Of a DNA stretch of 64,000 nt, positions 7,404-56,513 are shown one piece after another. The notes under the pieces were generated by a model. The model had not been told where the DNA came from and did not search any database. It was given only the letters and a program-made list of their open reading frames with translations. Position 1 is the stretch's first letter. Each line of letters begins with the position of its first letter. Both the position numbers and the translations under genes were made by a program. Source of the DNA: a virus (Duplodnaviria > Caudoviricetes); the IMG/VR virus record IMGVR_UViG_3300028805_000055, positions 64,001 through 128,000 of that record; one strand, given 5' to 3'.

Positions 7404-8258
7404 TCAAAATACCCAGTCTACAAACTCATTGTTCACCTTAACCACAAATGGTGTATCTGGCACTCTAAACTTGCGCTTACCGTCCTTTTCGTCAATGTAG
7501 TAGTCATTGGCAGTCTTGTGATAGTGCAAACCCACAATATGCTTTGCAGGGTCGAGATAACGCATATCATAGGTGTTACCGTCACAGATAGGGTAGCCAT
7601 GAAAACTCTTAGGCAACTTGTCGCTAAAGAACACTACAGCCACCTTACCGCCAGCGTTCAAGAACTTCTCGCAATCATCCCAATTATAGCCATTGTAGCT
7701 AAGAGTAAGGTCATAGTTGCTATACTGCTGCATCAGCTTAATGCGAGAGGGCACTTTGGTATAGTCATAGAATTGAACATTGGGAAACAACTCTAAGAGA
7801 TTAAGTCCTGTCTCTGGGTCTTTAAAAAGCACTGGTGACAGGTCGCTTGTTCCGTTGAGACGTACAGAAAACTCCATGCCGAGACGGTTGGCTCTGTTCT
7901 GATAACGTCTAAGTTCGTGAATCAGCAGGGACATGAACAATGCCCTATCATCATAGAATAACTTGGTTTTCTTGATGCGTGAACGGTTAACAAACGAATC
8001 CAACACATCACCTCCCTTATCCACTTGTTCAAGTTGAGAAGCCTTATTGTGACCAGAACCATTAAGACAGAATGCCTTGCAATACTGGCTGTTAGGGCAA
8101 ACATTGTGCCCAGACATATCCGCAGGGGCGAGATAAAGGCAGTACGTCATAGTACCGTTCTTATAAGATAACTTCATCTTAGCACTCTGGGCTACACTAC
8201 CTAAGTAGGAGATACCCAAGTTTCTCAGTTCCTTACCATAAGAAAATTTCTGTTCCAT
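7404..8258 (-). CDS. GP88-like phage protein (Cys-motif, radical-SAM-like)
   Basis: LAPA...VCPNSQYCKAFCLNGSG, VRLNGTSDL, FYDYTK, D-x-R-YLDP motifs. Confidence 0.75.
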   Translation of the reverse strand: MEQKFSYGKELRNLGISYLGSVAQSAKMKLSYKNGTMTYCLYLAPADMSGHNVCPNSQYCKAFCLNGSGHNKASQLEQVDKGGDVLDSFVNRSRIKKTKLFYDDRALFMSLLIHELRRYQNRANRLGMEFSVRLNGTSDLSPVLFKDPETGLNLLELFPNVQFYDYTKVPSRIKLMQQYSNYDLTLSYNGYNWDDCEKFLNAGGKVAVVFFSDKLPKSFHGYPICDGNTYDMRYLDPAKHIVGLHYHKTANDYYIDEKDGKRKFRVPDTPFVVKVNNEFVDWVF

Positions 8259-8970: not shown

Positions 8971-10065
8971 TTATGCAACCGACAGAAGCATTTCCTGTGC
9001 TTTCTGGATTTTGTTGTAGGCGTTACCACCCATGAGGCTATCGAACTTGATTTCCTCATTCGAGAAATTAGCCTCGTTCTGGAAATAGGTGGTGAGACCG
9101 TTGATGAACCACATACCTGTGCCTGCCTCTTGAATGTCCTGCCCGATGCCAGACTCCATAGCGTTCTTCACGTTGAGGAACAGGTTACGTCCACGAGTCT
9201 TGATGCCCTCAGACTCAATATCGCCTGTCTCATGGAACACCTTTGCAGCCTCTGGAGAGAGAAGCACATCAGCCAAGATGTTATCCAACTCCTTTTCAGA
9301 GAGGCGAATGTTACGCAGATGCTCAAACTGCTCTTTCAGACCAGATGCGTACACCTCGTAGAGATTGAGGGTCTTGTATGCGAACTCCGCATTTTCCTCC
9401 TGCAACAAGTCGAGGCGAGACATCACGTTACGACTGTGACGGAAAGAGATACGCCCGATATTGTTGTGCATAGCGAGATTGAGAGTGTTGTTGCACACCA
9501 CACGAATCGGGGTGATAACACATCGTACAGAACCTGTACCGTCATGAGAGGTGGTGAAGCAGGCGTACATATCTACCAAATCATCACGTCTGGCATCTAA
9601 GACTATCTGCTTTGGGAACTTAGCGGTAACGAACACACGCTCACCACGACCTAAGACACCAGCGGTTTCGATAACAGGTGTATTGTCCCTGTCTGTGTTC
9701 TTACCAGAGACCAACAGGTCTACGAACTTGAAAGCATCGCTATTCTGGACAATGCCGTAGGAATCAGATACCACGCCCAGAGACTGATTGAGGTCAGTGC
9801 GTACCGTAGCCATAGTGTTGGGGATAACCAGAGAGAGCAATGTATCAGCATCAATGCCACCATTCAAAATCTTGTCTTGCACCTCTGGGGTCAGAACCAT
9901 GACGGGCTGCATCATCACGTTATAGTCTGCATGAGAGAGTTTTAACGCCTCATCAACGTGCATTGCGCCATCTACCTGCTGTCCGAGGCTGTGCCATGCC
10001 AGACCGCTTTTCTTGTTCTCTACAAAGGAGTAAACTCCGTTTCTGTTTTCAATATTTGCTGCCAT
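8971..10065 (-). CDS. DUF932/DUF945 family phage/plasmid protein
   Basis: AWHSLG, YGIVQNSDAF, ETAGVLGRGERVF, TSHDGTGS, TPIRVVCNNTL motifs. Confidence 0.9.
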   Translation of the reverse strand: MAANIENRNGVYSFVENKKSGLAWHSLGQQVDGAMHVDEALKLSHADYNVMMQPVMVLTPEVQDKILNGGIDADTLLSLVIPNTMATVRTDLNQSLGVVSDSYGIVQNSDAFKFVDLLVSGKNTDRDNTPVIETAGVLGRGERVFVTAKFPKQIVLDARRDDLVDMYACFTTSHDGTGSVRCVITPIRVVCNNTLNLAMHNNIGRISFRHSRNVMSRLDLLQEENAEFAYKTLNLYEVYASGLKEQFEHLRNIRLSEKELDNILADVLLSPEAAKVFHETGDIESEGIKTRGRNLFLNVKNAMESGIGQDIQEAGTGMWFINGLTTYFQNEANFSNEEIKFDSLMGGNAYNKIQKAQEMLLSVA

Positions 10066-17532: not shown

Positions 17533-17964
17533 TTACGTTGTTCTCACCCATTGGAGTTTATCCTCTATGGGCATATGTAGCATATCCTCAGCACGTTTAA
17601 CGCATTCTTCCAGTGTTGTAGCATAGATAACGAGGTATGCTGATTTCTTCTGTAATTTTTTTGACTTAATGACGCTTGTTCTATTCTTATCGACCTGTAT
17701 GCCTCTTCTTTGGAATACTGGTCTTGGGTCATCGAAGTAGAGGTTATAGAGTCTTGCCTTGGAGCTGGATGTCTGTCTTGCTTGTTCCAGTCCCTTAGCA
17801 TGGAACTCATACTTGGAGAAGAAGCAATGCCATCTTTCGAGAGATACAACCACAGCGTACACGCTATCGTCATATTTCAGCTCATAGAATTTCCTTGGAG
17901 CGTTCTGTGCAAGGATTTCGTCAATGTGTTCAAGGTCGCATGATGCGAATTCGATATCAGTCAT
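17533..17964 (-). CDS. hypothetical protein
   Basis: 143-aa ORF. Confidence 0.7.
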   Translation of the reverse strand: MTDIEFASCDLEHIDEILAQNAPRKFYELKYDDSVYAVVVSLERWHCFFSKYEFHAKGLEQARQTSSSKARLYNLYFDDPRPVFQRRGIQVDKNRTSVIKSKKLQKKSAYLVIYATTLEECVKRAEDMLHMPIEDKLQWVRTT

Positions 17965-18439
17965 AATTGTCTGGTTTATCTGTTAATCTTATTCTTCCTA
18001 CAATTTGTAGTTTATCTGTTACAATCTCCCCGTAGTCGTTCCTATAGTAGGTTGCTCCTGCTGGGATGATGCAATGCACCAGTATTGGGTATCTCTGTAC
18101 CATTCTATCGTACCAGAAATACATTGGGCTGGCATAGTTGATTAGTCTGGCAATGAATGCCTTTCCGTCCACTGTGCTTTGTTCGAATTCAACGTCCCAG
18201 TCGAAGCAGTGTATTCCCTTGTCTATGGTACAGTGTTGTAAGTTATCGGAGTGCATGCGGATATTCTTAACCTCTATGTCAGAGGTATAGGTTTCTCCGA
18301 ACTCATACTTCTTTATATCCTTATGTCTTACATAGTAGGGGCAATAATACTCATGAGAGGGATTATACGCTATAACTTTCTTACAGTGTATATCATCCTC
18401 TGCTACTTGTTTTGACAAGAGTTTTCCGTACCAACACAT
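17957..18439 (-). CDS. MCW-family paralogue 1 (putative ART-like fold)
   Basis: MCWYG...DDIHCKK...GIHCF...IIPAGATYYRNDYGEIVT. Confidence 0.8.
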   Translation of the reverse strand: MCWYGKLLSKQVAEDDIHCKKVIAYNPSHEYYCPYYVRHKDIKKYEFGETYTSDIEVKNIRMHSDNLQHCTIDKGIHCFDWDVEFEQSTVDGKAFIARLINYASPMYFWYDRMVQRYPILVHCIIPAGATYYRNDYGEIVTDKLQIVGRIRLTDKPDNYD

Positions 18440-18440
18440 A

Positions 18441-18944
18441 TTACTCCTGTGTATTATAGGGTTTTAAATCTCTGAATGGTTTAAAATCGAAATAGGGTAC
18501 ATCCAGTCTATGAAGGATTTTAAGCCCCTCTGAGACTATTTCACCATGTTCATTCTCATAGTATACCGTACCCTTTGGGATAACGCCTCTAAAGACCGCC
18601 ACGATTCTGTTATCAGTATCACCCCTAAATGACTCGTAGTACCCTCTGAAGTGTCGTTTCGTGTCTACGATGATATATTTATCGTTGATATATTTATCGT
18701 TGTAGGCATTTTTCATCTTCACCGTACAAGAGCCGCTATAGCAATGCAGTCCTGCCTCTATTCTGATTTCGTCGTCCATACCAATTTCGGGTTTAATATC
18801 CTTGGTATAGAGCATATTCTCAATGTATGGCATATCCCTATATGGAGATAATAGGTCATTGCCATTAATGAGGATAACCTTATAGACTGGCATGTCTCCT
18901 GCTGTTGCAATATGTTTATCAGTTATCTTTCCTGTCCAACACAT
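18441..18944 (-). CDS. MCW-family paralogue 2 (putative ART-like fold)
   Basis: MCWTG...GDMPVYK...GLHCYS...VIPKGTVYYENEHGEIVS. Confidence 0.8.
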   Translation of the reverse strand: MCWTGKITDKHIATAGDMPVYKVILINGNDLLSPYRDMPYIENMLYTKDIKPEIGMDDEIRIEAGLHCYSGSCTVKMKNAYNDKYINDKYIIVDTKRHFRGYYESFRGDTDNRIVAVFRGVIPKGTVYYENEHGEIVSEGLKILHRLDVPYFDFKPFRDLKPYNTQE

Positions 18945-18948
18945 AGTC

Positions 18949-19239
18949 TTAACTGTATTTCACTTTAATACAAGGTATTTTTGGTATAGGGCATGTTTGT
19001 ACCCTCATAAGGTTATTTACACGCTCCACAAACTCAGCATCGCTCATACAGAAATTCAGATTACAGATAAGTTTCCTAAGTGCAAAGTCCTGTGCTGCTC
19101 CATTTTCAACGCTATGCCATCCACAGAGTTTGATATATGTGCATTCATATCCTGCAAATACAAAGTAGAGTTTGGGCATGATTCCGAGTCTCTTAGCTCT
19201 TACAACTACCTGTTTATCCTTATCATTTAGAACTAGCAT
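18949..19239 (-). CDS. hypothetical protein
   Basis: 96-aa ORF, coupled. Confidence 0.65.
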   Translation of the reverse strand: MLVLNDKDKQVVVRAKRLGIMPKLYFVFAGYECTYIKLCGWHSVENGAAQDFALRKLICNLNFCMSDAEFVERVNNLMRVQTCPIPKIPCIKVKYS

Positions 19240-19559
19240 AGTACTGCTGTGGCTATTGCCTCCAGAGTTTCATCGTCAGCTTCTGTTGCCCAGATGTTGA
19301 CCCAGGTATCGTAGGTGTTCTTGGTGTTGATTCTCACATGGTTAGGTGATGCATCCATGAAGTCCTTGTCGTCACTTGTGAGGCTGACGTAGACCAGTTC
19401 CACAGAACCCATATCCTCGTTAATCTGTAGGCGTTTGGTATACACTTTGGTTTCCATCGGGTCAACGCCCATGATGTCTGCCTTTTCAGTCACCTTCCCT
19501 CTCTTCATGAGGGCATCATAGATAAGTTTAATAACTTGTTTCTTGTCTAATGTCTTCAT
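19233..19559 (-). CDS. hypothetical protein
   Basis: 108-aa ORF. Confidence 0.75.
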   Translation of the reverse strand: MKTLDKKQVIKLIYDALMKRGKVTEKADIMGVDPMETKVYTKRLQINEDMGSVELVYVSLTSDDKDFMDASPNHVRINTKNTYDTWVNIWATEADDETLEAIATAVLC

Positions 19560-19570
19560 ATGTTATAATG

Positions 19571-20059
19571 TTATAATTTATTATCGATTTCTTTTACAAT
19601 TAATTTCTCTGATACAATCTCACCACTATCGTTCTCATAATAGGTCGTACCCTTTGGTATGATGGCTTTCATAAGCACAGGATAGTGATACATATCGGCT
19701 GGGAAGCAGATTGTATTTCTGGCTTGGACTGCGAGGTTTTTGATTTCACTGTATAGGTAAACAGTGATTAGACTTGTTTCTCCTTGGAAGTTTTCACGTT
19801 TCGAAAACCTGCACTTACTTGGGCTATAGCAATGTAGTCCTGCATTTATCGTTATATATGATTGACCAGATGGTGGAAAAGCATGAAGAGGGTTTATTTT
19901 GGTTACGTAACCAATACCAATTCCATACTTCATGAACTGGTATGGTGATACAAAGGAGGGATTATCAAACAATTCCTTTCTTTCTTTAAGGAGTATCTTG
20001 CGAACCTCGATGTTTTCCTTTGCTACGTGTTTATGTTCTACTTTTCCTATCCAACACAT
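19571..20059 (-). CDS. MCW-family paralogue 3 (putative ART-like fold)
   Basis: MCWIG...ENIEVRK...GLHCYS...IIPKGTTYYENDSGEIVS. Confidence 0.8.
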   Translation of the reverse strand: MCWIGKVEHKHVAKENIEVRKILLKERKELFDNPSFVSPYQFMKYGIGIGYVTKINPLHAFPPSGQSYITINAGLHCYSPSKCRFSKRENFQGETSLITVYLYSEIKNLAVQARNTICFPADMYHYPVLMKAIIPKGTTYYENDSGEIVSEKLIVKEIDNKL

Positions 20060-20061
20060 GG

Positions 20062-20544
20062 TTATAATATCTTATTTGTAATGATTAATTTATCTGATAC
20101 AATCTCTCCCTTGCTATTTTCGTAGTAGGTTGTACCCTTCGGTATGATGGCTTTCACCATGACTGGCATTCTACGCAAACTGTATATAATACGTTCAGAG
20201 TATGTGTGTGTGTTACCGAATAGCTTACTTTGATAGTTGTAATTCTTAGGGTACACTATGAGGTAGTTTGTCTGGAGGGCCTTTGGTATTGGTTTACGCA
20301 TCTTACACTTCCTGGAATACGAATGCAGCCCGATGTCTATGCGTATGGGTTCTTCTTTCGATTCGTCAACGATGTCATCCCTTACCACTATGGCATGTTT
20401 TTTTTCTTCATTGGCGGTATAGACCTCATATCTATATGGTGACAAGAATCTATCAACGTCCTTATCACACATCATCAAGACCTTTTGAACTTCAATATTA
20501 GTCTTGGCAACTTTCTTATCACTTCGCTTTCCGTACCAACACAT
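20062..20544 (-). CDS. MCW-family paralogue 4 (putative ART-like fold)
   Basis: MCWYG...TNIEVQK...GLHSYS...IIPKGTTYYENSKGEIVS. Confidence 0.8.
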   Translation of the reverse strand: MCWYGKRSDKKVAKTNIEVQKVLMMCDKDVDRFLSPYRYEVYTANEEKKHAIVVRDDIVDESKEEPIRIDIGLHSYSRKCKMRKPIPKALQTNYLIVYPKNYNYQSKLFGNTHTYSERIIYSLRRMPVMVKAIIPKGTTYYENSKGEIVSDKLIITNKIL

Positions 20545-20561
20545 AGTATACAATATTTTGC

Positions 20562-20595
20562 TGCAAAGATAACTAAAAAATCTGAGATAACCAAA
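20562..20595 (-). promoter_or_regulatory. Bacteroidota sigma promoter
   Basis: TTTGG...TATCTTTGCA; drives the MCW cluster. Confidence 0.8.
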
Positions 20596-20621
20596 TTATT
20601 TAATTATCTTTAACTCTTTTT

Positions 20622-21056
20622 TTAATGCAGCCATTGAGCCTCCCTAACCTGTCTATCAATCTTATAGTCTGGTATCTTAGAGATTACACTCTGTATTTGC
20701 TTTGTGTCAATGTTAATTAATGCCATCACTGGTACTTTGAACAGCATACATTTATTTAATATCCTTATGTCATCTTTTGTTAGCCCATCAACTGTTTCTC
20801 CATCCAGACTATAGCCGAATCCTATCTTAAGCATCTTCACGAAGTTATCGCTTGCTTCTTCCACGAAGCCAAGTGTTAATCCATATGAGACATACCCAAG
20901 TTTGGCATTTCCTATAATGTTTGCCAGTTTGAGGAAATATTTCATTCTCACATATTCTTTGAGGTCTCCTTTTCTTTTCAACCTTCTTAGAATGTCCTTA
21001 GTCCTTATCTTCTCGCCATATTTATAGCTTGGCTTTTGGTTTGTTTGCTTTCTCAT
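20622..21056 (-). CDS. hypothetical basic protein
   Basis: probable start MRKQTNQK. Confidence 0.65.
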   Translation of the reverse strand: MRKQTNQKPSYKYGEKIRTKDILRRLKRKGDLKEYVRMKYFLKLANIIGNAKLGYVSYGLTLGFVEEASDNFVKMLKIGFGYSLDGETVDGLTKDDIRILNKCMLFKVPVMALINIDTKQIQSVISKIPDYKIDRQVREAQWLH

Positions 21057-21465
21057 TCTTCTTTTTCTTCTTCTTGTTAATGTCGATGCCATGTTTAAGG
21101 AGACCCAATATCCTGTTAAGGTCTGTGAACTCCCAGTCGAATTCATCCATGAGGTCATGTGCAAATGACTTTAGGACGAACTCTGGTGTATGGTCTTCCT
21201 GTATGTTATTGGGCTGGAATGTCAGCAGGACGAACTTGCTCTTAACGAAGTCGTAATAGCCTCGTATAAGCATCTTGCCTGCATACTTATAGACACAGAA
21301 CAATCTGTCACCATCTGGTGACGAGCCAACTATACCAATCTTGAATTTTGGTTTAGGCTGGGGTTTATGCTGTTCTTGTTTCTTATCTGTCGGTGTCTTC
21401 ATCGTCTCCGATGAGGTCTCTTGGATTCCAGTTTCTCCATCCATCATTGTAGTCTTCTTCGTCAT
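21022..21465 (-). CDS. hypothetical protein
   Basis: 147-aa ORF with a Lys-rich tail. Confidence 0.7.
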   Translation of the reverse strand: MTKKTTMMDGETGIQETSSETMKTPTDKKQEQHKPQPKPKFKIGIVGSSPDGDRLFCVYKYAGKMLIRGYYDFVKSKFVLLTFQPNNIQEDHTPEFVLKSFAHDLMDEFDWEFTDLNRILGLLKHGIDINKKKKKKNEKANKPKAKL

Positions 21466-21474
21466 CTATAACCA

Positions 21475-21717
21475 TTATTCTCCTTTCATATAGTTTTTAA
21501 AGTCCTTTTCCCAATGACCAAAGCAGACAACGCCATCCTTGTCTGTATTGACATATTCTATCCAATTATTTTTAAACCACTCGCAAGCCTTCTCAATAAA
21601 GGCATCAGTTCTAGTGTACTCAACACTATCTTGGTTTGCTCTTCTTTTCAACCAAGGTCTAATAAACTCTCTACCACTAATATCGGGGTGTAGAAAAATC
21701 TTCTCTGGTGCTTCCAT
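21475..21717 (-). CDS. hypothetical protein (EAP-x-KI...EYTRTDAFIEKACEW family)
   Basis: 80-aa ORF in a low-GC cassette. Confidence 0.75.
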   Translation of the reverse strand: MEAPEKIFLHPDISGREFIRPWLKRRANQDSVEYTRTDAFIEKACEWFKNNWIEYVNTDKDGVVCFGHWEKDFKNYMKGE

Positions 21718-21729
21718 ATTTGTATAGCT

Positions 21730-22248
21730 TTATACATTATACATTCCTTCTGGGGCTTCAAGAGCAAGCCCTTTTTCGATTAATCCTCTATAATCAAAGT
21801 GATGTTTGTTAAGCCAATCAAAGATTTTGATTGATGAAATTATCTCATCATACCAAATCATTCTTATCTCAGTACTACAAAAACCATCATCAACTACAAC
21901 TTCTATATATTCGTCAGTTATTTTTATTGATAAAATATCTTTAATATCATGTAAAATAGCAATCTCCTTTGCCTCTTCCTCTGTCATAGAAGACATTGGA
22001 CGGAGAAAAGGTTTAATAAAATCAACACACCCAGTGTAATGTCTTTTGTTAAAGAAACCGAAGTCATCGCCATCAACGCCAACACTAGTATAGGTTTCTT
22101 CCATCAAAAACACATCGCTAGATGCTTTTCCATATAGTGTCATTATTGTTGGCTCTTTAAATGTCGTATTATATACTTTCACCCCACACTGCAACCTTGC
22201 ACAGAGGTCTTTGAGTAGTAATTCTTTATCTTCTTTTTTCATAATCAC
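21730..22248 (-). CDS. hypothetical protein (DKELLLKDL...LRPMSSMTEEE...HFDYRGLIEKGLA family)
   Basis: paralogue of 28929..29315. Confidence 0.8.
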   Translation of the reverse strand: MIMKKEDKELLLKDLCARLQCGVKVYNTTFKEPTIMTLYGKASSDVFLMEETYTSVGVDGDDFGFFNKRHYTGCVDFIKPFLRPMSSMTEEEAKEIAILHDIKDILSIKITDEYIEVVVDDGFCSTEIRMIWYDEIISSIKIFDWLNKHHFDYRGLIEKGLALEAPEGMYNV

Positions 22249-22409
22249 AATAAATTTAATTAGTGTAATTTAATAAGGAGGTAATCTGTCAAAGCCTCCA
22301 TATTTTAACTCTTCTCTTGCGCCAATACATATGACAACAAAAAATAATATACTTAGACTAATAGCACCGATGCCTATAATCGCATCTTCTGTAAAATATT
22401 CAAACATAT

Positions 22410-22805
22410 TTATAATAATTTTTGTTCGTGTAATTTAATAATCATAGCCACACAAGCATCAACAGGATTGTCTGCTGACACTGTAAAATCTTCACTGTGA
22501 CTATCATCTTCGTACTCGCACCACCAATTATCAATATATTCAATTGGCTCTATTCTCCAACCTCCTCTTGACAAAGTTGTTGATTCTTTTTCGTTATTAG
22601 GTAAAATGCTGTACAACGCTGCAAGACTCCAACAAGGAATTGTCTTAATCCCTAGCATAATTTCAGCAATCTGCATATCGGCCAAATTTCCAAATGCCTC
22701 CTTGTAGTTGTCTCCTATTCCCTTCTCAAAATACATATCCGCACTTTCAAGAGGAAGGAACTCTGCCAACTTCTTGCTTTGTTCTAAATCGGTGAATGCT
22801 TTCAT
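22410..22805 (-). CDS. hypothetical protein (EQS...ADM...PxWSL family)
   Basis: paralogue of the next ORF. Confidence 0.8.
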   Translation of the reverse strand: MKAFTDLEQSKKLAEFLPLESADMYFEKGIGDNYKEAFGNLADMQIAEIMLGIKTIPCWSLAALYSILPNNEKESTTLSRGGWRIEPIEYIDNWWCEYEDDSHSEDFTVSADNPVDACVAMIIKLHEQKLL

Positions 22806-23125
22806 AATTTCTTATTTTCTAGTAACCAACAAACCATTTCAAATGCAGCATCAATTGGCTCACAGGCTTTATCTATTGAATGATTAGTAGTTTCTATTTT
22901 ATATTCAATTGTTCGTTTAAATATATTAAAATTTGGCATTAATTTTAATAATGCTACAAGACTCCAGGCTGGACTACAATTAGGTGCAGTCATAGGCTGA
23001 GATATACAGTACCTACATTCATTGCTACCAAAATAAGGTACATTATACATATCCGCAGTATTAACATCCAATCCTAGCTCTATCAATCTCTCGGACTGTT
23101 CTATTGATGTACAAATATTTGTCAT
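22802..23125 (-). CDS. hypothetical protein (EQS...ADM...PxWSL family)
   Basis: probable start MTNICTS. Confidence 0.75.
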   Translation of the reverse strand: MTNICTSIEQSERLIELGLDVNTADMYNVPYFGSNECRYCISQPMTAPNCSPAWSLVALLKLMPNFNIFKRTIEYKIETTNHSIDKACEPIDAAFEMVCWLLENKKL

Positions 23126-23136
23126 AGTGAATTGTA

Positions 23137-23601
23137 TTACATTTCTATTAAATTGCCAAGCCACACCTCACATAATTCACTTTGGTACATGGCATGTCCT
23201 ATCGGATTCTCGCCAATACCATCTGAAATACAGCCTTCTAGGAAATCAACGACGGCTTCCTTAAGTGTTATTTTCCTTACATCGCTTGAGTAGTAGGGAT
23301 GGTTTACTACAATGGTGCTGAATGGCTTCTCACTAACCAGTGTAACCATGTAGTTGCCCTTGTCATAGACAACTTCCATAAGTATATCCTTGTTATTGAA
23401 TCCACCCATTTTCTTGTCATAGTCAGTATCCCTCCAGGCATCTATCCAGTCATATTGACCATCCAGTCTATCAATGTCTATTGGCAATATGGAGTTGAAG
23501 TCAAGCTCATCCATATTGACATCGTATGTTGAATATGAATTCTTTATGATTGGTCTGGGTAGCATAACGACCAATGGTATTCTAAATTTCAGTATGTCCA
23601 T
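23137..23601 (-). CDS. hypothetical protein
   Basis: 154-aa ORF with SDGIGEN motif. Confidence 0.75.
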   Translation of the reverse strand: MDILKFRIPLVVMLPRPIIKNSYSTYDVNMDELDFNSILPIDIDRLDGQYDWIDAWRDTDYDKKMGGFNNKDILMEVVYDKGNYMVTLVSEKPFSTIVVNHPYYSSDVRKITLKEAVVDFLEGCISDGIGENPIGHAMYQSELCEVWLGNLIEM

Positions 23602-23693
23602 ATATCAATTAATTTAAATCCAATCCTGGTGGTGCGCCATCCTTGAGTGGTGTTGTCACCTCGCTTGGGTCTAAGAATCTTTGTAATCATATA

Positions 23694-24002
23694 TTAGAAA
23701 ATTACATTTTCGTTTCTTTCTTGTATCCTTTGAAGGTTGGCTTCATAAATCGAAAGCACCATATCTGGTATTGTTTTATCTGGGTTTGTCAAACGATATG
23801 AATCTGCCCAATAAGACTTAAGTGATGAAGCATACTGCGACAAATGACACCACCCACCGTCTTGACATCTGACAAGTGCAAGCGTCAATGTTCTGAAAGC
23901 CTTGAAGTATTTATAGCCAGCTTTCTTGCATTGTTTATATGCTAACTGGTAGAACACCCTGTCACTTTGGTTTTCTATGAGGTCAAATACAGTATTATTC
24001 AT
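23694..24002 (-). CDS. hypothetical protein (probably leaderless)
   Basis: ATG lies 4 nt after TATCTTTG. Confidence 0.7.
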   Translation of the reverse strand: MNNTVFDLIENQSDRVFYQLAYKQCKKAGYKYFKAFRTLTLALVRCQDGGWCHLSQYASSLKSYWADSYRLTNPDKTIPDMVLSIYEANLQRIQERNENVIF

Positions 24003-24004
24003 AT

Positions 24005-24038
24005 GGCAAAGATATATAAAAAAAATGAGGATAACAAG
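24005..24038 (-). promoter_or_regulatory. Bacteroidota sigma promoter fused to a terminator hairpin
   Basis: inverted repeat TGAGGATAA/TTATCCTCA. Confidence 0.8.
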
Positions 24039-24062
24039 TATTATCCTCACTTTTAACGTTTT

Positions 24063-24488
24063 TTATCTGTTGCACCACTTGTCATACTTCTCAGAGTAGT
24101 TGCAACGTCCACTACCTTTCAGCTCCCAAGGAACAACAATATCCTTGCCACTTGGCTTGATGCGTTTGTTCTTGCTAGCCTTTCCGAATCCAAGCTTGCA
24201 GCCCCATCTGTCACCAGGAAATGCGTCGTTGACGTAGACACCCTCATTCTTATTGATGAAGGGGATAAGCAGGGCGTAGCCTGCATTCATCTTATCACAG
24301 AGGGTAGGACCTTCCCTACCAGTGAAATACTTGAACCAGATGTCGTTGACAGCATCCTTAATTTTCTCTGGAGTCCAGATGTCAGCATCAAACAGCAACT
24401 GTCCTGGGCTTGACTGCCACTCATCACCATTGGAGAAACGCCATCCAGCGTCACCTCCACACGTTACGATAAACGAAATAAATTTCAT
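24063..24488 (-). CDS. hypothetical protein
   Basis: 141-aa ORF. Confidence 0.8.
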   Translation of the reverse strand: MKFISFIVTCGGDAGWRFSNGDEWQSSPGQLLFDADIWTPEKIKDAVNDIWFKYFTGREGPTLCDKMNAGYALLIPFINKNEGVYVNDAFPGDRWGCKLGFGKASKNKRIKPSGKDIVVPWELKGSGRCNYSEKYDKWCNR

Positions 24489-24514
24489 GTTGTTTTAATT
24501 ATTTTATGTTTGTG

Positions 24515-25000
24515 CTATTTCTTATATACTTTTAAATCCTTGAAACGTCTATCATCACTCCATGTTGCATATTCTGCCTTCATTCTGCATACGAGAGTCA
24601 GTTTTTCGGTTACAATCTCTCCACGTGAATTGATGTAGTAGATTGTTACCTTCGGGATTATGCATCTTACTATGATAGGTATGATGGCATCACCGAAACG
24701 ACCATACCTAGTACCTCCAATGACCGTAATATCTCCATCATTACTCACAACGATTTGATTATCCTCGCTGTAGCAATGCAGACCTATGCCTATTGAACAG
24801 CTATCATTTTTATAATCGTACTGTGGTCTAACGGCAAAATTAGGTTCATATGTTTCACCAATCTCGTATTTCACACGACGCACAGGAGAGAATAAACCGT
24901 CGAAATGGTCTCCATGACTATATCTCTTTTCTAGTATCTTATAGACAGTGACATCCTCTAAGGCACATCTTCTGTCTTTCATATATCCAACCCAACACAT
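24515..25000 (-). CDS. MCW-family paralogue 5 (putative ART-like fold)
   Basis: MCWVG...EDVTVYK...GLHCYS...IIPKVTIYYINSRGEIVT. Confidence 0.8.
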   Translation of the reverse strand: MCWVGYMKDRRCALEDVTVYKILEKRYSHGDHFDGLFSPVRRVKYEIGETYEPNFAVRPQYDYKNDSCSIGIGLHCYSEDNQIVVSNDGDITVIGGTRYGRFGDAIIPIIVRCIIPKVTIYYINSRGEIVTEKLTLVCRMKAEYATWSDDRRFKDLKVYKK

Positions 25001-29444: not shown

Positions 29445-31250
29445 TTAATATGTATTTCTCTTTTTTAAATACCCTATTGCAGCACTCCAGCCATCATCAA
29501 ATGTAGGCTCGCTACTATGATATTCAATTTTGTCAAGAGCATCATTATAAGCATCCTTTTTCGCTTGAGCAAGCTCTTCATCAGTAATATTGGTTTGAGG
29601 CTGAATACGTTCTTTGAGCCAATTAATTAATTTATCCGCATTTCGCCCATCACCTCTCATTGTATGAATCATAGCTTCAATATCAGAAAAATTGTATTTA
29701 TCTTCTTCACTCCATTCTTTACTTGGTACAAGTTCTAAGAGAATGTTTGCTTGCTTTTTTATTGTATTTGTATCATTTGGGTCTAATCCTGCATATTGGC
29801 CAAAGAAAGAGCCACCTATGTACATCATTGCATTTTCAAAGTCAGTTAATTCGCCTGTATTTTCTTGCTTCCACTCTTGCTTTGGCTGTACCAGACCTTT
29901 GAGGGATTCGAGCCAATCAGAAAATTCCTTTCTTGAATTACAATATGGAGTAGAATAAATTAAATTATGTATTCCTCTATACATTCTTTCATCCTCTTCA
30001 CTCCATTCTTGCTTTGGTTGTGGCTGTACTCTGTCTTTGAGCCAATTAATATCTTTATCATATTCTTTTTTGCAAGGATATTGTTCCGAACAATATTCTA
30101 TTGAAGAAAGAATTGAGTTGTACCTTCTTATATCCTCGTCATTCAAAGCATGGTTCTGCTCATCCATAGCGGACTTTTGTTCAATCTTCTTCAATTCTTT
30201 CTTCTCAGCATCCCACTCATATCCTGCTTCTTTCATTTTCTGAAATAAGAGGTCACGCTGTTCTTTGGTGGCTGGATAAGGCTCTTTATATGTAAAATAA
30301 TTACCGATAGCACATTCAGTAAAGCGTAATCCATCATGAGTTTTGTAGATTCCACAATATGCACAAACTCTACCTCTTAAATCAAGTTTCCCATTATATA
30401 TAAAAATCTTATCTTTATCTTCAGCTGCAAGCACATCACCAGCCTTTGCATCTGCAATACTCCAAAGATGATAGTTGTTCTCGATGGCAGTATGTGCTAT
30501 TGTATGGTGATACCCTAAAATATCAACAACTTTATAATCAAGAGGGCTGGGTTTAGCAACTTTAATAATATTTCTTCTTTCATTGTGAACAAGCCAATCT
30601 CCAACTTTTGGTTCAACCTTATCAGTAGACTTCTGCTCAATCTTCCTCAACTCTTTTTTCTCAAAGTCAAAGATATATCCAGCATCAGCCATTGCTTTCA
30701 TCAGAGTATCGCGCTGTTCTTTGGTGGCAGGATGCAACAGTGGTACGTCGTTTGTTTTTCCCCAGTAAAAATCTTTTTCTTGTATTTTAAATTTTCCACT
30801 ATCAGCAACACAATGATAATCAACTACATCTTCATACTTTTTATTTCCTATCTTTCTAAACAATATTACACTAGCATCATCTGCAAGCACATCGCCATCC
30901 TTTGCATCTTGGATTGTCCAAAGTCTTGCATCATTTTCCAACGAATAATGCGTACAAGAATACTCTTTACCTTCATTTGTCTTATAGGCATAAGTATTAT
31001 CTAATACTTTCATTATTTGAAATATAGTGCCATCTTCATTATCTATGCACCAGTCGCCAACATTGAACTTTATCCTCTCGTCATCTGACTCTACAAGTTC
31101 GGGAAAAAGTTTTGCATACATGCCTCTTATGCCATCTTTTGTAAGATGATTGCAGATATAGTCATCAGCCAAGCAATCAAGTGCTAATTTTGCGCAATCC
31201 AAAGCCTCGTCATATCTTTGGGCTTTTTCTTCTATTGTAAGTTCTTTCAT
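29445..31250 (-). CDS. modular repeat protein
   Basis: two copies of KVGDW...LW-x-I-x-DAK-x-GDVLA...PATKEQRD...GY and repeated WSEED...WLK units. Confidence 0.8.
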   Translation of the reverse strand: MKELTIEEKAQRYDEALDCAKLALDCLADDYICNHLTKDGIRGMYAKLFPELVESDDERIKFNVGDWCIDNEDGTIFQIMKVLDNTYAYKTNEGKEYSCTHYSLENDARLWTIQDAKDGDVLADDASVILFRKIGNKKYEDVVDYHCVADSGKFKIQEKDFYWGKTNDVPLLHPATKEQRDTLMKAMADAGYIFDFEKKELRKIEQKSTDKVEPKVGDWLVHNERRNIIKVAKPSPLDYKVVDILGYHHTIAHTAIENNYHLWSIADAKAGDVLAAEDKDKIFIYNGKLDLRGRVCAYCGIYKTHDGLRFTECAIGNYFTYKEPYPATKEQRDLLFQKMKEAGYEWDAEKKELKKIEQKSAMDEQNHALNDEDIRRYNSILSSIEYCSEQYPCKKEYDKDINWLKDRVQPQPKQEWSEEDERMYRGIHNLIYSTPYCNSRKEFSDWLESLKGLVQPKQEWKQENTGELTDFENAMMYIGGSFFGQYAGLDPNDTNTIKKQANILLELVPSKEWSEEDKYNFSDIEAMIHTMRGDGRNADKLINWLKERIQPQTNITDEELAQAKKDAYNDALDKIEYHSSEPTFDDGWSAAIGYLKKRNTY

Positions 31251-31274
31251 ATGCATTTAATTTATAATTTCAGT

Positions 31275-32397: not shown

Positions 32398-32925
32398 TTA
32401 CATTTTACTGTTTAATACTTCAGAAACGATATTTCCCTTAACGTTAGGGAACTTAGCCTTTACCACAGGCATAATCTTGCCCATGTCCTTTATTGAGAGT
32501 TTGTAGCCCTCTGGTTGCTCTGAGAGATACTTGTCAATTGTTTCGCTTACAAACGCCTTGATGTCGTCCTCTGTAGGCTGCGCTGGTGTGAATTCCTTGA
32601 TAACATCAAGCTCGCCCTGTTCAATAGCAGCAAGGTCTTCTCTCTTTGCCTCCTTATATTTCTCTATAGTCTTATTCCTCTGCTCAGCCATTTCAAGCAG
32701 AATGCCAGTCTCCTGGTCTTCGGTAAGAACATACTTAGCCTTGGGGTTCTTATTGATGAACTCCGACTTTATTAGTTTGAGAGTCTTTATTCTCTCATTA
32801 ACCTCTTTAACTACACCTTCCTCCTCTGCTGTTTTCTCCTTTTTGGTAAGCAGTGGTGCGTTCTCTTCCATAAGTTTCTGCAAGGCTTTCTCCACCTTGG
32901 CAAGAATTGTAACATTTGTGTCCAT
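32398..32925 (-). CDS. GatB/YqeY domain protein
   Basis: LKLIKSEF, QR...Y-x-x-A-x-REDLA-x-x-E-x-x-EL-x-VI-x-x-F-x-P, KDMGKIM. Confidence 0.85.
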   Translation of the reverse strand: MDTNVTILAKVEKALQKLMEENAPLLTKKEKTAEEEGVVKEVNERIKTLKLIKSEFINKNPKAKYVLTEDQETGILLEMAEQRNKTIEKYKEAKREDLAAIEQGELDVIKEFTPAQPTEDDIKAFVSETIDKYLSEQPEGYKLSIKDMGKIMPVVKAKFPNVKGNIVSEVLNSKM

Positions 32926-33632: not shown

Positions 33633-34697
33633 TTAACGTGGATATCCACCATGATTCTCCATATCCAGGGCTACAACCGTCTTCGCTGTCATATTGATAA
33701 GCGATTCAAGGTCTCTGTAGTCACAGACCTCAGCCTGGGTGTGCATATTCCTGTTAGGAATTGACAGGAGCTGTGTGATACAGTTTGATGATGCCTGTCT
33801 GATATACACTGTGTTAGTGCCCCAAGCAGGTGCTATAAACTCCTGGTATGGAATGTTATTTTTATTGCAAACAGCCTTGATGAACTTGGTGAAATACGGA
33901 TGGTTGTTTACACCATGAGCGATACATCCACCCTTACCAAGCTTGATGTCACCCCACTCATTAGCATCAGCGTGACCGTCATCTGTAGAGAATGTCACAT
34001 CAAAGTCGATGGAGTAGTCTGGGTCAATACCAGCAGCAGCAACTATTGCTCCAGTGGCTGTGGTCTCCTCCTGTGTACATGCAACGAAATACACGCACAG
34101 GTTATCAAGTGATGATTCCTTAGACAGAATTTCTGCTACCTCTGCAATGATGAAGATACCTGCCTTGTCATCAAGACCACGACCAGCCACTCTGTTGACA
34201 CCGATATCAAACGGTTCTCCATGAACAAGGGCAATGTCACCAATGTTCACGATTGCAGCAGCTTCTTCCTTGGTCTCAGCACCGATATCAATCTTCAAAT
34301 CCTTGATTTCCAGCACCTTATTCTTCTCCTCACCCTTCTCGATGTGGATTGCTGCCTTACCAATGACACCATCGATGATGCCAGTTGAAGTGAGAACCTT
34401 CACACGAGAACCAGGAAGCACCTTCTTGTCAATGCCTCCATCAGCCACGAAGTGAAGAAATCCCTTATCATCAATATTCTGAATTTGGAGAGCAATCTCG
34501 TCAATGTGTGCCGAAAGCATCAGCTTGGCTTCTGCCTCTGGATTACCCATCATGTAGATTGTGTTACCAGCATTGTCACGCTTAACAAGTGTGGCAAACT
34601 TGTTCATGTGGTCAGCAAACACATTGGATGCACTGCCCTCGTAACCACTTGGACTTGATGCACTCAAGAGTGCATGTAAAAATTCTCTGTTAATCAT
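33633..34697 (-). CDS. M42 family metallo-aminopeptidase
   Basis: SPSGYE, SAHIDEI, GRGLDDKAG, TQEE, RNMHT. Confidence 0.9.
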   Translation of the reverse strand: MINREFLHALLSASSPSGYEGSASNVFADHMNKFATLVKRDNAGNTIYMMGNPEAEAKLMLSAHIDEIALQIQNIDDKGFLHFVADGGIDKKVLPGSRVKVLTSTGIIDGVIGKAAIHIEKGEEKNKVLEIKDLKIDIGAETKEEAAAIVNIGDIALVHGEPFDIGVNRVAGRGLDDKAGIFIIAEVAEILSKESSLDNLCVYFVACTQEETTATGAIVAAAGIDPDYSIDFDVTFSTDDGHADANEWGDIKLGKGGCIAHGVNNHPYFTKFIKAVCNKNNIPYQEFIAPAWGTNTVYIRQASSNCITQLLSIPNRNMHTQAEVCDYRDLESLINMTAKTVVALDMENHGGYPR

Positions 34698-35177: not shown

Positions 35178-36032
35178 TTAACTAAACTCCCTCTTGAAGG
35201 GCTTGAAGTTACCCTCTGGGTTATGTGCTCCGTTCGTTGATGGCAGGTTGATAATGGCGAATACAATCTCCTTGAACAGGTTCTTGTATTCCTCACTATC
35301 AATCACCTCATGGAACAGCTTGGCTACAATCTTCGGTGGAGTGCCATAAGCACCACAGCCGAATGCGCTAAGCACGATGGAGTCATTACCATTCTCTAGA
35401 GCTATGTCAAATATCTGCTTTATCTTTCCCCTTAGGGTATCCTTTACCCAGTCAGCAACGTCTCCAGTCTCATCAACAGTAGGTTTCCTTACTGCTGGAA
35501 GTGTGATAACGTCAATCTTGAACGGGTCATCCATTATACGGCAGTTCTCGTCCTCTGACTTCCTAAACACAGTCACGTTAGGGGTATAGATACCGCCATA
35601 GTGCATTTCAAGCGGGTATCTCTCCTCACGCTGTGGAATGTGATAGTTAGTACCTACCTCATGGAACTGATAGAGTGACATAAAGATATTGGTACGTCTG
35701 AAGATGCTCTCTTCCTGTGCGGCAGAGCCTTTCTCTACACCACCTCCAGGAGTGTGGAATGATGCCATGTTAAGCACTGCTGGCTTCAGACCAAGCTTCA
35801 CCATAGCCTGTGCTGCATCAAGGCAGTCGCTGTCCATGATGGCTATATGGGTCTCATACTTAGGCAGGAGGTCATGATGAAGATTCACCTTAGTACTATA
35901 GAACTTGGTGTTGTTCTTCATATCCTCCATATCATCAAACTTTACGTCGATGTTTCTGATAGAATATCCCTTAGCCTTTACCAGTCTAACGGTATTTCTA
36001 AAAATGTTGACTCTTTCTTCCTTTGTCATCAT
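35178..36032 (-). CDS. bacterial-type PARG macrodomain (TIGR02452/DUF2263)
   Basis: VLNMAS-x-x-x-PGGG-x-x-x-G-x-x-AQEESIFRRT and LSAFGCGAY motifs. Confidence 0.9.
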   Translation of the reverse strand: MMTKEERVNIFRNTVRLVKAKGYSIRNIDVKFDDMEDMKNNTKFYSTKVNLHHDLLPKYETHIAIMDSDCLDAAQAMVKLGLKPAVLNMASFHTPGGGVEKGSAAQEESIFRRTNIFMSLYQFHEVGTNYHIPQREERYPLEMHYGGIYTPNVTVFRKSEDENCRIMDDPFKIDVITLPAVRKPTVDETGDVADWVKDTLRGKIKQIFDIALENGNDSIVLSAFGCGAYGTPPKIVAKLFHEVIDSEEYKNLFKEIVFAIINLPSTNGAHNPEGNFKPFKREFS

Positions 36033-37805: not shown

Positions 37806-38426
37806 TTATCTGTAAAGATTATATTCGTTTATAATTTTTAATGTTTCCATCGTCACGTAAGGATATGGATTCATACCATTCTTAATCATGCTTCTAACAA
37901 GCGTAGATGATATGTCCACCCTCTGGGTCTTGATAGTCCAGAACTCCTTGTTGGTGAGACTGCTTCTGCTACCCTCCCTCACAATGAAAGGGATATGTGG
38001 GTTCTCGAATTCAGTGCCATCACCCCTCTTAATCTCGATGAACGACACCTTATTCATTATCTCACTCTCGAACTTCTTCCATTGTGGAATGCGTTCTATA
38101 GTATCAGTACCAGCAATGATATATATTTCATCCTCTGGGTACGTCTCCAGTGCTTTACCTATTGGGAGATATGAGTATACTGGAGGCTCAAATTCTTCCT
38201 CGAACCTGCATACCTCATACTTTCCCTTAATTAGGTCTATGGAGTCATTAATCATTCTGCACCTTAAATCATATGGTGCTGGTTCTTCTCCCTTCCAAGG
38301 GTTATGTCTTGCAACAACGAACAACACCTTGTCACACAGCCCACTGTTCAACACGGCTGATGCCATGTGGAGGTGAGCAACCGTAACTGGGTTAAACGAG
38401 CCAAGAAGCAATCCTATCTTCTTCAT
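37806..38426 (-). CDS. nadD: nicotinate/nicotinamide mononucleotide adenylyltransferase
   Basis: GSFNPVTVAH (HxGH-like), NPWK, IAGTD, ISSTLVR. Confidence 0.85.
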   Translation of the reverse strand: MKKIGLLLGSFNPVTVAHLHMASAVLNSGLCDKVLFVVARHNPWKGEEPAPYDLRCRMINDSIDLIKGKYEVCRFEEEFEPPVYSYLPIGKALETYPEDEIYIIAGTDTIERIPQWKKFESEIMNKVSFIEIKRGDGTEFENPHIPFIVREGSRSSLTNKEFWTIKTQRVDISSTLVRSMIKNGMNPYPYVTMETLKIINEYNLYR

Positions 38427-41978: not shown

Positions 41979-42653
41979 TTATAACTCTATGTCAATATAG
42001 CATGGTGGGTACACCAGCTTATAGTTCTCATTCACTACCGATACATTCCTAATCTCGGTCTCTCCACGCTTTTCCATTTCGTGGTTGCACGAATGAAGGT
42101 GTCCACAGAAGTGATACCTCGGCATCTTATTATCCACAGCGTCACCAAGGGGGTGACAACCTATGTGGTCTCCTGTCTTCCAAGGACAATCCTCTTGCAG
42201 CAGCACATCATTGTTACCATAAGGACAATCATGTGTAAGCAGGATGTCAACCTTATATGGAATCTTATTGTATATCTTGGCAAGCTGAACGTCGGATGTC
42301 ATAAATGCCCAGTTGTAGAACTGGTGACACCAGGGAGTGCCATAGATTCTGAAGCCCTCATACTCAGCCTCTTTATCACAGAGATATGTAATTTTGGTGT
42401 TCTCAAACATTGCTTCCCAGTCGTCTGGATGCTCCATAGCAATCCAATCATGGTTTCCAGCAATGAGGAAAACCTGCTTACAAGGCTGTTTCTCACACCA
42501 GGGTACAAACTCCTTGGCAAGCCACTTCAAAGTCCCCTGGTGATATGTCTGTACCCTCAGCGGGACAATATCGCCACATATGCACAGAATGTCGCACGGC
42601 TCTATGTCAAAATTAAGGATACCGTGCATATCCGATATAGCACAAACTTTCAT
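41979..42653 (-). CDS. calcineurin-like metallophosphoesterase
   Basis: SDMHG, CGD, AGNHD, LTH, CGHLH all intact. Confidence 0.9.
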   Translation of the reverse strand: MKVCAISDMHGILNFDIEPCDILCICGDIVPLRVQTYHQGTLKWLAKEFVPWCEKQPCKQVFLIAGNHDWIAMEHPDDWEAMFENTKITYLCDKEAEYEGFRIYGTPWCHQFYNWAFMTSDVQLAKIYNKIPYKVDILLTHDCPYGNNDVLLQEDCPWKTGDHIGCHPLGDAVDNKMPRYHFCGHLHSCNHEMEKRGETEIRNVSVVNENYKLVYPPCYIDIEL

Positions 42654-44114: not shown

Positions 44115-44657
44115 TTAGGAATTTTTTTTCTTATCGTATACAAAATGCTTGCTTCTCTCCACAGTAGTATGAGTTGTAACCTCAATTTGTCCACCAGAAA
44201 GCTTAGTCACCTTGTCTGCTATGTTATGGAACTCCTTACCATGACCCCTTGCTGGCTTAGTGCCATTCATGTATGTGTAATAGTGACACATTTCATGAAC
44301 AAGAGTCACCATGAAAGCCCACTCACTACCACGCTTATTACCATTCAACTCAATTCTTGGCTGGGCTAGAAGATAAAAATTATCGTGGTTGATGTGGGTA
44401 ATAATTGTTGCAAGACCAAGCGGCGTATGCTTGATGAGACCGCCACCGTTTGTAACATTAACCCCACCAGTTAGTCTGAACCACCCATTAGTTGCTCCTC
44501 TGCTTCCTCTTCCAGTTGTGAATACTTTAAAGTCACACTTTCCAAGAGCACCGCCAAACAGCTTCTCGTTGGCTTCATCATATCTCCTGGACATCCACTC
44601 TACCGTAGGTCTGAAATCCCTGGTATTGTAATCCAATTCAAAACTAACTGTCTTCAT
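44115..44657 (-). CDS. SprT-like zinc metalloprotease
   Basis: N-x-x-LF-x-G-x-L, TLVHEMCH, GHGKEF. Confidence 0.85.
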   Translation of the reverse strand: MKTVSFELDYNTRDFRPTVEWMSRRYDEANEKLFGGALGKCDFKVFTTGRGSRGATNGWFRLTGGVNVTNGGGLIKHTPLGLATIITHINHDNFYLLAQPRIELNGNKRGSEWAFMVTLVHEMCHYYTYMNGTKPARGHGKEFHNIADKVTKLSGGQIEVTTHTTVERSKHFVYDKKKNS

Positions 44658-45512: not shown

Positions 45513-46199
45513 TTACTCCAGTCTTTTACATTCTTCTTCACTAAACGTCGAATGAAGCTTCTCAAGCCACCATTTAGTCTTGACCTTGGACATTGGAAGC
45601 CTCTGTCCTGGAAGCCTCGTAGAACGCTTTAAAACCACTCCCTCCTTGACGTTAGGATACCTACAGCCTTCCTTAGTCCAGTCATTTTCCTGTATTGACT
45701 GTACGAAGTCAGCGGTGAGCTTACCGACATACACAACGTCTGGTGTCTCAACCCTAGCATCCTCACAGAAGATGTCAATGAAGTCATTCGGTTCTACAAA
45801 TCCTTTCTTCTTGATGAATACGTCAAACAATCCCAGGTGCATTTCATCACCAGGCTGGTGAAATCCAGCAAAGCTATGCTCTCCGTACCACTCAAAGAAC
45901 AGGGTCAACTCCTCAGCACCATTGAAGATGCCATGTTTTCCAGAGTTATTGACAATGATATCCCTAAGAGCTGTTTCGTAGTTCTGTTTGAAGAATCTCA
46001 CAGCGTCACCGAACTGCTCATTGGTCTCGTCCACAAGTTGAGTCCTTGACCCAAATGTGGTAAACTGTTTCTTTGTTAGACCCTTGGGAGTGTATTTCAC
46101 CCTAAAGTTCTGACCGTCCAGCTTGTTGAATGCCACTACCTGTTCACCTTTAAGCGTACCGTCATCCAATAGCCTTGGTATACTTGCATATTCTTTCAT
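45513..46199 (-). CDS. RNA ligase (Rnl2-like nucleotidyltransferase)
   Basis: KLDGQN, FFEWYG, LFDV, EGVVLK, KVK. Confidence 0.8.
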   Translation of the reverse strand: MKEYASIPRLLDDGTLKGEQVVAFNKLDGQNFRVKYTPKGLTKKQFTTFGSRTQLVDETNEQFGDAVRFFKQNYETALRDIIVNNSGKHGIFNGAEELTLFFEWYGEHSFAGFHQPGDEMHLGLFDVFIKKKGFVEPNDFIDIFCEDARVETPDVVYVGKLTADFVQSIQENDWTKEGCRYPNVKEGVVLKRSTRLPGQRLPMSKVKTKWWLEKLHSTFSEEECKRLE

Positions 46200-48288: not shown

Positions 48289-48795
48289 TCAAATCTGGTT
48301 TATTTCCTTAAGTCTCTTCCTGGTCTCGTCAAGAACCTTACCAAGCAAGTTCTGTCCCCTCCAGTTTGACTCGTCATCCAGGGCAGTAACTTCGTCACAG
48401 CCAATACCCCATAGTTGGTCCGTTGGGCTGGCTTCAACAAAGCCCTTGCCATCAAACTCCTCGCTGAGGATGGTCTTCTTAAGTTCCTCGTTCTGCGTGA
48501 ACTTCAACAGGTTGGCATCAAGCATGATGCCAAACCTCTTCTCGTTCCACACCTTATCGTCGTAACCCTGTACCTTCCTACCCATAGCCTTAGCTGTACG
48601 AGGGTTAGAACCGAACTTGACAATCTGTTCAGCCATCTTGGTGTCACCGAAGGTAACAGCCTTCATGAACATGAAATACTGCTCGGAGTTATAGAACTTA
48701 TACTCCTGTCCGTTTACTGTGGTGGTAAATGTGGCTGAATACCAATTGGAAGGCCACTCACCCCAAAAGAATACGTGCTTATCTGTTACTCTCAT
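48289..48795 (-). CDS. NADAR (YbiA-like) family protein
   Basis: SNWY, SEQYFMFMKA, KFTQN, VEASPTDQLWGIG, GQNLLG. Confidence 0.92.
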   Translation of the reverse strand: MRVTDKHVFFWGEWPSNWYSATFTTTVNGQEYKFYNSEQYFMFMKAVTFGDTKMAEQIVKFGSNPRTAKAMGRKVQGYDDKVWNEKRFGIMLDANLLKFTQNEELKKTILSEEFDGKGFVEASPTDQLWGIGCDEVTALDDESNWRGQNLLGKVLDETRKRLKEINQI

Positions 48796-50362: not shown

Positions 50363-50376
50363 TCAGCCCCCTATTT
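50350..50376. terminator. bidirectional hairpin terminator at the endonuclease/pncB junction
   Basis: AAATAGGGGG-TAATCAG-CCCCCTATTT. Confidence 0.7.
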
Positions 50377-56434: not shown

Positions 56435-56451
56435 TCGAAAATCATTTTTGG

Positions 56452-56485: not shown

Positions 56486-56513
56486 TAACAATCCCAGATT
56501 TAATATTATTTAA

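Follow-up and report, generated by a model that had tools for sequence, protein, structure and literature searches.

The stretch of DNA analysed here (hereafter the window) spans 64,000 nucleotides, positions 64,001 to 128,000 of the IMG/VR virus record IMGVR_UViG_3300028805_000055, a large rumen phage of the Caudoviricetes whose 153,679 bp correspond to a completeness of 52% according to CheckV. Its minus strand encodes five proteins of about 160 residues that begin with Met-Cys-Trp and that we call the MCW paralogues. Paralogues 1 and 2 lie at 17957..18439 (160 residues) and 18441..18944 (167 residues), paralogues 3 and 4 at 19571..20059 (162 residues) and 20062..20544 (160 residues), and paralogue 5, which a stretch of about 4 kb with small, unrelated open reading frames (ORFs) separates from the other four, at 24515..25000 (161 residues). 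A preliminary description of the window had picked out these ORFs by their common MCW...K...H...GE motifs, and the set is real: aligned over their full length, the five proteins are 28-32% identical to one another, a likeness far beyond chance, and a family profile run against the entire virus record returned exactly these five matches, with E values from 2e-40 to 6e-48 (2.6e-41, 7.9e-48, 5.5e-48, 6.3e-46 and 2.2e-40 for paralogues 1 to 5).

Twenty alignment columns are invariant in the five copies, including M1, C2, W3, G5, A13, K21, G75, H77, I125, P126, Y131, Y132, N134, G137 and E138 of the protein encoded at 17957. In the numbering of the 18441 protein, which we use from here on, K22, G65, H67, P123, Y128, N131, G134 and E135 are invariant, and residue 68, directly after the His, is Ser or Cys. 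The shared blocks read M-C-W-x-G, A-x-x-[D/N]-[I/V/M]-x-V-x-K, G-[L/I]-H-[C/S]-[Y/F] and I-P-[K/A]-x-x-x-Y-Y-x-N-x-x-G-E-I-V. The motif pattern given in the preliminary description thus stands, with one amendment: its second block is better written G-[LFYI]-H-[S/C]-[Y/F]-[S/N/D], so that the S/C-Y-S triplet comes after the His. All five genes start with ATG TGT TGG. The mechanically called ORF of paralogue 4 begins at a TTG at 20553 (MYTMCW...); since the N-terminal MCW is kept throughout the family, with 109 of 120 and 120 of 123 proteins in two sets of homologues starting exactly in this way, the ATG at 20544 is most probably the true start and the TTG an unlikely one. A Shine-Dalgarno sequence was looked for upstream of the five genes and none was seen, which would fit a Bacteroidota-type host.

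The five proteins belong to a much larger family. The profile of PHROG 13450, a group of unknown function, matched all of them over most of its length with E values from 1.5e-9 (paralogue 4) to 9.8e-6 (4.6e-7 for paralogue 1), while a Pfam search of the five proteins and of 124 family members yielded no family above threshold. Of 215 metagenomic homologues retrieved by a word-indexed search, none was named or came with a Pfam domain already computed, and this missing label does not stem from an old Pfam release, because rIIB proteins in the same database carry the recent family PF26926. When 1.84 billion cluster representatives were searched exhaustively with the family profile, 8,372 proteins matched at E <=0.001 and 2,741 at E <=1e-10, placing the size of this viral family at no less than 8,372 clusters at 50% identity. 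Its feature neighbours in the ESM Atlas, too, are unnamed viral clusters; for the queries 18441-18944 and 20062-20544 the nearest named cluster, 'Bacteriophage T4 Y00F protein' (PF26820), has a cosine of 0.82-0.86, below the reliable level, and a search of T4 with the family profile gave no match at E 10. One member, gp013, which is 28% identical to paralogue 4, was identified in a deposited phage, the crAss-like IAS virus. Each of 24 IMG/VR contigs of 53-412 kb carries one to eight copies, mostly in tandem, and the same MCW arrays occur on a contig from bovine rumen; a megablast comparison of the region with GenBank phages returned no match. The MCW family is thus restricted to viruses, very large and without a Pfam name.

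Conservation within the family is concentrated on a small set of residues. Over 248 sequences, C2, W3, A13, K22, Y40, G65, H67, I122, P123, G125, Y128, N131, G134, E135 and V137 are 93-100% conserved; counted individually, C2 is found in 239 of 241 members, K22 in all 246, H67 in 247 of 248, P123 in 244, Y128 and N131 in 241 each and E135 in 239 of 246, and residue 68 is Ser or Cys in 96%. That polar positions (K, H, S/C, N and E) are kept at 96-100% when overall identity is only about 30% suggests a catalytic or ligand pocket. Between H67 and P123, on the other hand, lies a hypervariable segment of 33-76 residues. Every paralogue of the window has separate orthologues at 55-98% identity (56-98% for paralogue 1, 83-98% for paralogue 3 and 73% between paralogue 5 and its orthologue P0027), indicating that the duplications are old and that each copy has been maintained. 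The five genes therefore represent ancient paralogous lineages, each kept in its own right, within a very large family specific to phages.

The preliminary description had proposed that these proteins are ADP-ribosyltransferases (ARTs), and the predicted fold speaks for this. AlphaFold2 gave confident all-beta models both of the 18441 protein (55-sequence alignment; predicted local distance difference test, pLDDT, 90.2) and of a minimal family member of 136 residues (145 sequences; pLDDT 94.3). The known structures nearest to the two models come almost entirely from the ART superfamily, and ART-superfamily entries occupy the top of the wide VIA list for the 18441 protein. The toxins and enzymes among the matches include BC2332, Tne2, Arr, Tpt1/KptA, Rhs1-CT, TreX, TreTu, Tse6, PltA and pertussis S1, as well as diphtheria toxin and its homologues, exotoxin A-like toxins, Scabin, pierisin, MTX, DarT1, ParT and MbcT; CC0527, AvrPphF ORF2, Agrobacterium 6b, PARP1/2/4/10/13/15/16, the tankyrases, RCD1, SRO1 and TASOR were matched as well. 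As ART chains make up a tiny fraction of the structure library, their enrichment with two models cannot be chance. The models appear to have the ART-type split beta-sheet core as their domain fold, as in the ADP-ribosylation fold of SCOP (d.166), which takes in BC2332-like, CC0527-like, AvrPphF and Tpt1 proteins (PMC3000352). On these predictions, MCW is probably an ART-fold family, and its single all-beta domain would be a stripped-down derivative of that fold. A role as Tpt1-like RNA 2'-phosphotransferases was considered and rejected, as the match covers only the NAD lobe and such a role would give no reason for having five paralogues.

The first and last aligned residues of the structure matches allowed us to place the conserved residues on the ART motifs, by offsets only. 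Using the short model, in which K20, H62, S63 and E120 are the equivalents of K22, H67, S/C68 and E135, K20 coincides exactly, by the start offsets, with PARP1 862, PARP2 428, PARP10 887, TNKS1 1184, TNKS2 1031, diphtheria toxin 21, pertussis S1 9, Scabin 77 and pierisin 59, and comes within one residue of Arr 19. We take these to be the motif I residues of the respective enzymes, namely His in PARP1, PARP2, PARP10, TNKS1, TNKS2, diphtheria toxin and Arr (H862, H428, H887, H1184, H1031, H21 and H19) and Arg in pertussis S1, Scabin and pierisin (R9, R77 and R59). The proposal that a Lys stands where ARTs have their Arg is thus supported by the offsets to nine reference enzymes, and the modelled placement of the invariant Lys at the motif I Arg/His position has good support, although the family residue is itself neither Arg nor His. 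The accompanying assignment of the His to the ART Ser position appears to be off by one. In the pertussis toxin match it is S63 of the short model, and not H62, that falls on S52, taken as the Ser of the S-T-S motif, which ARTs carry on the second core strand and which may be replaced there by a Tyr; the spacing from K to S/C in the family equals that from R9 to S52 in the toxin, and aligning G-x-H-[S/C]-Y-S with G-[Y/F]-x-S-T-S, as in the preliminary description's own block alignment, leads to the same result. By the offset and the alignment, the motif II Ser equivalent would be residue 68, so that the family may have retained a motif resembling S-x-S, with an additional invariant His just before it. 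A precedent is Lsan_0116 from Legionella: in this family, which has been predicted to be ART-like, motif I has [R/K] and motif II reads [S/C]-W-H and thus likewise includes a His (PMC12522546).

Based on the modelled fold and residue placement, we tentatively favour, at rather less than even confidence, a reading in which MCW proteins are ART-fold enzymes that use NAD+ (nicotinamide adenine dinucleotide), have a pocket of non-canonical make-up and owe their target to the hypervariable segment. Each protein would be made from the surrounding block of small co-oriented genes. NAD+ would be held in a cleft by the invariant Lys, which on the first core strand would substitute for the customary Arg or His, together with the G-x-H-[S/C]-Y-S strand, which would replace G-x-x-S-T-S, and the loop and strand of Y-Y-x-N-x-x-G-E; the bound NAD+ would then be consumed, with its ADP-ribose either transferred or released. 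The 33-76 residue segment could direct each paralogue to a separate target, much as T4 has Alt, ModA and ModB. In this scheme we infer NAD+ binding and catalysis as well as the roles of E135 and the N-terminal Cys, the timing of expression and the targets.

Several results weigh against this reading. The Pfam search of the five proteins and the 124 members gave no sequence link to an ART family, a profile (hidden Markov model) search of the PDB up to E 10 returned no match to any ART, and Foldseek, the check proposed for an ART fold, was run on both models and found no ART. When the family profile was ranked by hhalign against all 204 T4 ORFs of at least 90 residues, ModA came third with a score of 19.9 (mean 12.3, standard deviation 2.7), which is not significant, even though K22 was paired with ModA R72 and I-P-K-G with ModA I-P-A-G; rIIB came 14th, Alt 21st and ModB 130th, and the ranking as a whole, ModA included, is at background level. 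The claim that the blocks match the VIP2/C2/T4 Alt order one for one fails against ModA and ModB. In the T4 record, ModA and ModB have E-Q-E-[V/W]-M-I-P-x-G, with E-Q-E directly before M-I-P-x-G, and the Alt/Mod-type order R...S-T-S...E-x-E followed by h-h-P-x-G is not found in the family, where 12 residues separate the Pro from the invariant Glu that follows it. The position that the ModA alignment pairs with the catalytic Glu, four residues before P123, is variable (K 78, E 57, D 22, R 21 and N 17 of 244) and is Glu in none of the five window copies. Nor do the offsets secure E135 as the catalytic Glu of the modelled fold, a residue that begins the fifth core strand of ARTs and may also be Gln or Asp: the end offsets of the PARPs, pertussis toxin and Scabin lead to residues 116-117 of the short model, the invariant Asn, three to four residues before E120, and those of diphtheria toxin and Arr to about residue 105, some 15 before the E135 equivalent, in line with the ModA alignment, leaving the assignment ambiguous.

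Family variants occur in related phages. A further point against the reading is a sister 'MCF' subfamily, which retains K, G-F-H and I-P-K-G-S but shows Q or R at the site of E135, so that Lys and His appear to be the deepest invariants and Glu a trait of the main clade. Degenerate neighbouring copies lack G-x-H and have G-K in place of G-E. Other forms in IMG/VR phages are extended at the C terminus by about 130 residues, for a total of 260-282; neither this extension nor any other part of the variants matched a Pfam family, and longer, fused forms were sought in a set of 5.8 billion proteins without any being found. The variant loci are L032:288-716, L033:269-712, L034 (minus strand), L035:439-858 and L031:1180-2028 and 2039-2821.

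The genomic context is of little help to the ART case either. As had been described, the window contains genes for NAD salvage and for two ADP-ribose erasers: an NAPRTase at 50363-51595, a cytidylyltransferase-like, NadD-type protein at 37806-38426, an isochorismatase-like (PncA-type) protein at 54364-54939, the latter a weak match, a microbial-type PARG at 35178-36032 and a NADAR domain protein at 48289-48795. The idea that these and the MCW proteins form a chain of supply, writer and eraser does not hold in general, since among 25 other phage records with the MCW family PARG occurs in 3, NADAR in 2 and NAPRTase in 5, and the carriers of the gene set are essentially the closest jumbo relatives (G001-G003). 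The chain is thus a property of the phage lineage rather than of the family, and the genes add little to the argument; they could equally counter host NAD depletion and ART-based host defence. Overall, then, the fold and the Lys position of the ART interpretation hold up, whereas its motif order, its His assignment, its genomic argument and any sequence match to known ARTs do not.

Several of these observations would also fit a non-catalytic ART-like domain that retains the fold together with some of the nucleotide pocket, a reading we regard as rather unlikely. Such proteins would act as binders and could serve as sponges for NAD-derived immune signals or as inhibitors docking on host proteins through the hypervariable segment, in the manner of pseudo-PARPs. 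The variable canonical Glu site of the ModA alignment, the subfamilies and neighbouring copies without E135 or G-x-H, the presence of non-catalytic ART folds (RCD1, SRO1, PARP13 and the TASOR pseudo-PARP domain) among the structural matches, and the diversified multi-copy arrays, which suit a set of binders, are all consistent with it; yet K22, H67, E135 and the N-terminal Cys are near-invariant over thousands of clusters, more than is usual for a pure binding scaffold. The same near-invariance, now of C2, H67, N131 and E135, could instead reflect a Cys-His hydrolase or N-terminal-nucleophile enzyme, such as a peptidase, amidase or deamidase, in which Cys would become residue 1 and act with H67 and N131 or E135. 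A Cys as second residue permits removal of the Met, and the MCW start of almost all homologues fits this chemistry, but neither model matched papain-like, N-terminal-nucleophile or other Cys-hydrolase folds, and the rIIB-type relatives, if real, lack the N-terminal Cys. We consider this explanation very improbable.

The relatives in question belong to a side link that would support a further, rather unlikely reading, namely that the MCW family is part of a phage and giant-virus class of beta-domains with DUF7666 and the C-terminal domain of T4 rIIB, that it has a function unconnected with NAD, and that its likeness to ARTs lies in the strand arrangement only. In a Foldseek comparison with viral models, the family's own members were followed by rIIB of several phages (E 0.015-0.25, probability 0.87-1.0, template modelling (TM) score 0.38-0.47) and by DUF7666 proteins (E 0.045-0.11), with TM scores of 0.36-0.47 for rIIB and DUF7666 overall; a 'pentapeptide' phage protein and giant-virus ankyrin/DUF4116 proteins were also listed. 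The C-terminal region of T4 rIIB (gene at L001:2966-3904) contains W-K215, G-L-H257, P281, D283 and K295 in an order parallel to K22, G-L-H67, P123 and E135, and the rIIB-like protein of the IAS virus (L036:1276-2238) has the same succession of W-K, G-L-H, P-x-D and G/A-K. Its gene, a homologue of rIIB at E 4e-26, adjoins an ORF of 493 residues. In hhalign, K was paired with K and GLH with GLH at a score of 18.9, just above the maximum of 18.4 reached in 60 column-permuted null comparisons (12.1 +/- 2.3), and 3 of 124 members gave faint matches to DUF7666, the best at E 0.034. All these links are marginal, however: rIIB takes only the 14th place among the T4 ORFs, no member passes the Pfam threshold for DUF7666, and the DUF7666 model found nothing in this genome, the family variants or 26 phage records. 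The class would moreover be compatible with an ART origin of all its members, and it offers no mechanism. No paper mentioning DUF7666 by name and no relevant description of an rIIB fold was found in the literature, where the mechanism of rIIB is still considered unsolved (PMC10312443; PMC7824862). The rIIB C-terminal domain may be the same, possibly ART-derived, domain as the MCW family, which is suggestive rather than established. Carrying this further, MCW, DUF7666 and the rIIB C-terminal domain might form one ART-derived viral superfamily, in which MCW proteins would be NAD+ enzymes with a new Lys, His-Ser and Glu site plus an N-terminal Cys, arranged in multi-target arrays, and rIIB a related nucleotide-binding module; we hold this to be unlikely as a whole.

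Apart from the genes discussed so far, the window encodes an RNA repair and maturation set at 45513-46199, 52231-53136, 55025-56491 and 41979-42653, composed of two RNA ligase family proteins, a CCA-adding/poly(A) polymerase-type enzyme with an HD domain and a calcineurin-like phosphoesterase. Further annotated genes, at 58836-60902, 33633-34697, 8971-10065, 7404-8258, 44115-44657 and 32398-32925, encode a protein of 688 residues with C-terminal ankyrin repeats, an M42 aminopeptidase, and DUF932, GP88 family, SprT-like and YqeY-like proteins. The large ORFs at 61223-63760, 57284-58708 and 29445-31256 had no Pfam match.

If the MCW proteins are active as ART-fold enzymes, as we tentatively favour, they would rank among the largest sets of ADP-ribosylating or NAD-consuming phage enzymes that have so far escaped recognition, comprising thousands of clusters in gut and rumen phages and including crAss-like viruses. 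Their non-canonical catalytic residues would widen the chemistry of the ART superfamily, the diversity of paralogues would hint at many host targets, and the proteins would become candidates for host takeover or anti-defence in the phages of Bacteroidota, which have been little characterised so far. If they are inactive, they would still constitute a large, well-defined domain family deserving a name, and if the link to rIIB is true, this classic phage protein, still unsolved, would gain a concrete hypothesis in structural terms.

Considering the known systems to which the MCW family can be compared, the rIIB C-terminal domain (PF26926) and DUF7666 (PF24703) share with it weak fold matches and the order K, G-L-H, P and G-[K/E], and the IAS virus carries both a member of the family and an rIIB-like gene; rIIB differs in having a Lys at the family's Glu site, an N-terminal helix-turn-helix and other domains, and no N-terminal Cys. 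Lsan_0116 offers a published case of a Lys in motif I, a His-containing motif II and an unusual strand layout, but it represents a bacterial and archaeal effector family, itself only predicted, with two Glu in motif III (PMC12522546). A literature search for an ART of crAss-phages found nothing relevant. Among the R-S-E mono-ARTs, which include Alt, ModA and ModB of T4 and the C3/VIP2-type toxins, T4 resembles this phage in possessing several diverged paralogues. The MCW domain, in contrast, has a variable residue where ModA and ModB have E-x-E directly before I-P-x-G, and its models are without alpha helices. The minimal ART domains, that is BC2332-like proteins (2aua), the NADase toxins Tne2 and Tse6, the rifampin ART Arr and the NAD lobe of Tpt1/KptA, have no detectable sequence similarity to the family. 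The MCW proteins combine their invariant Lys with G-x-H-[S/C]-Y-S, with Y-Y-x-N-x-x-G-E and with Cys-Trp at the N terminus, features that none of the minimal ART families is known to possess, and they differ from these domains also in occurring only in viruses and in multi-copy arrays.

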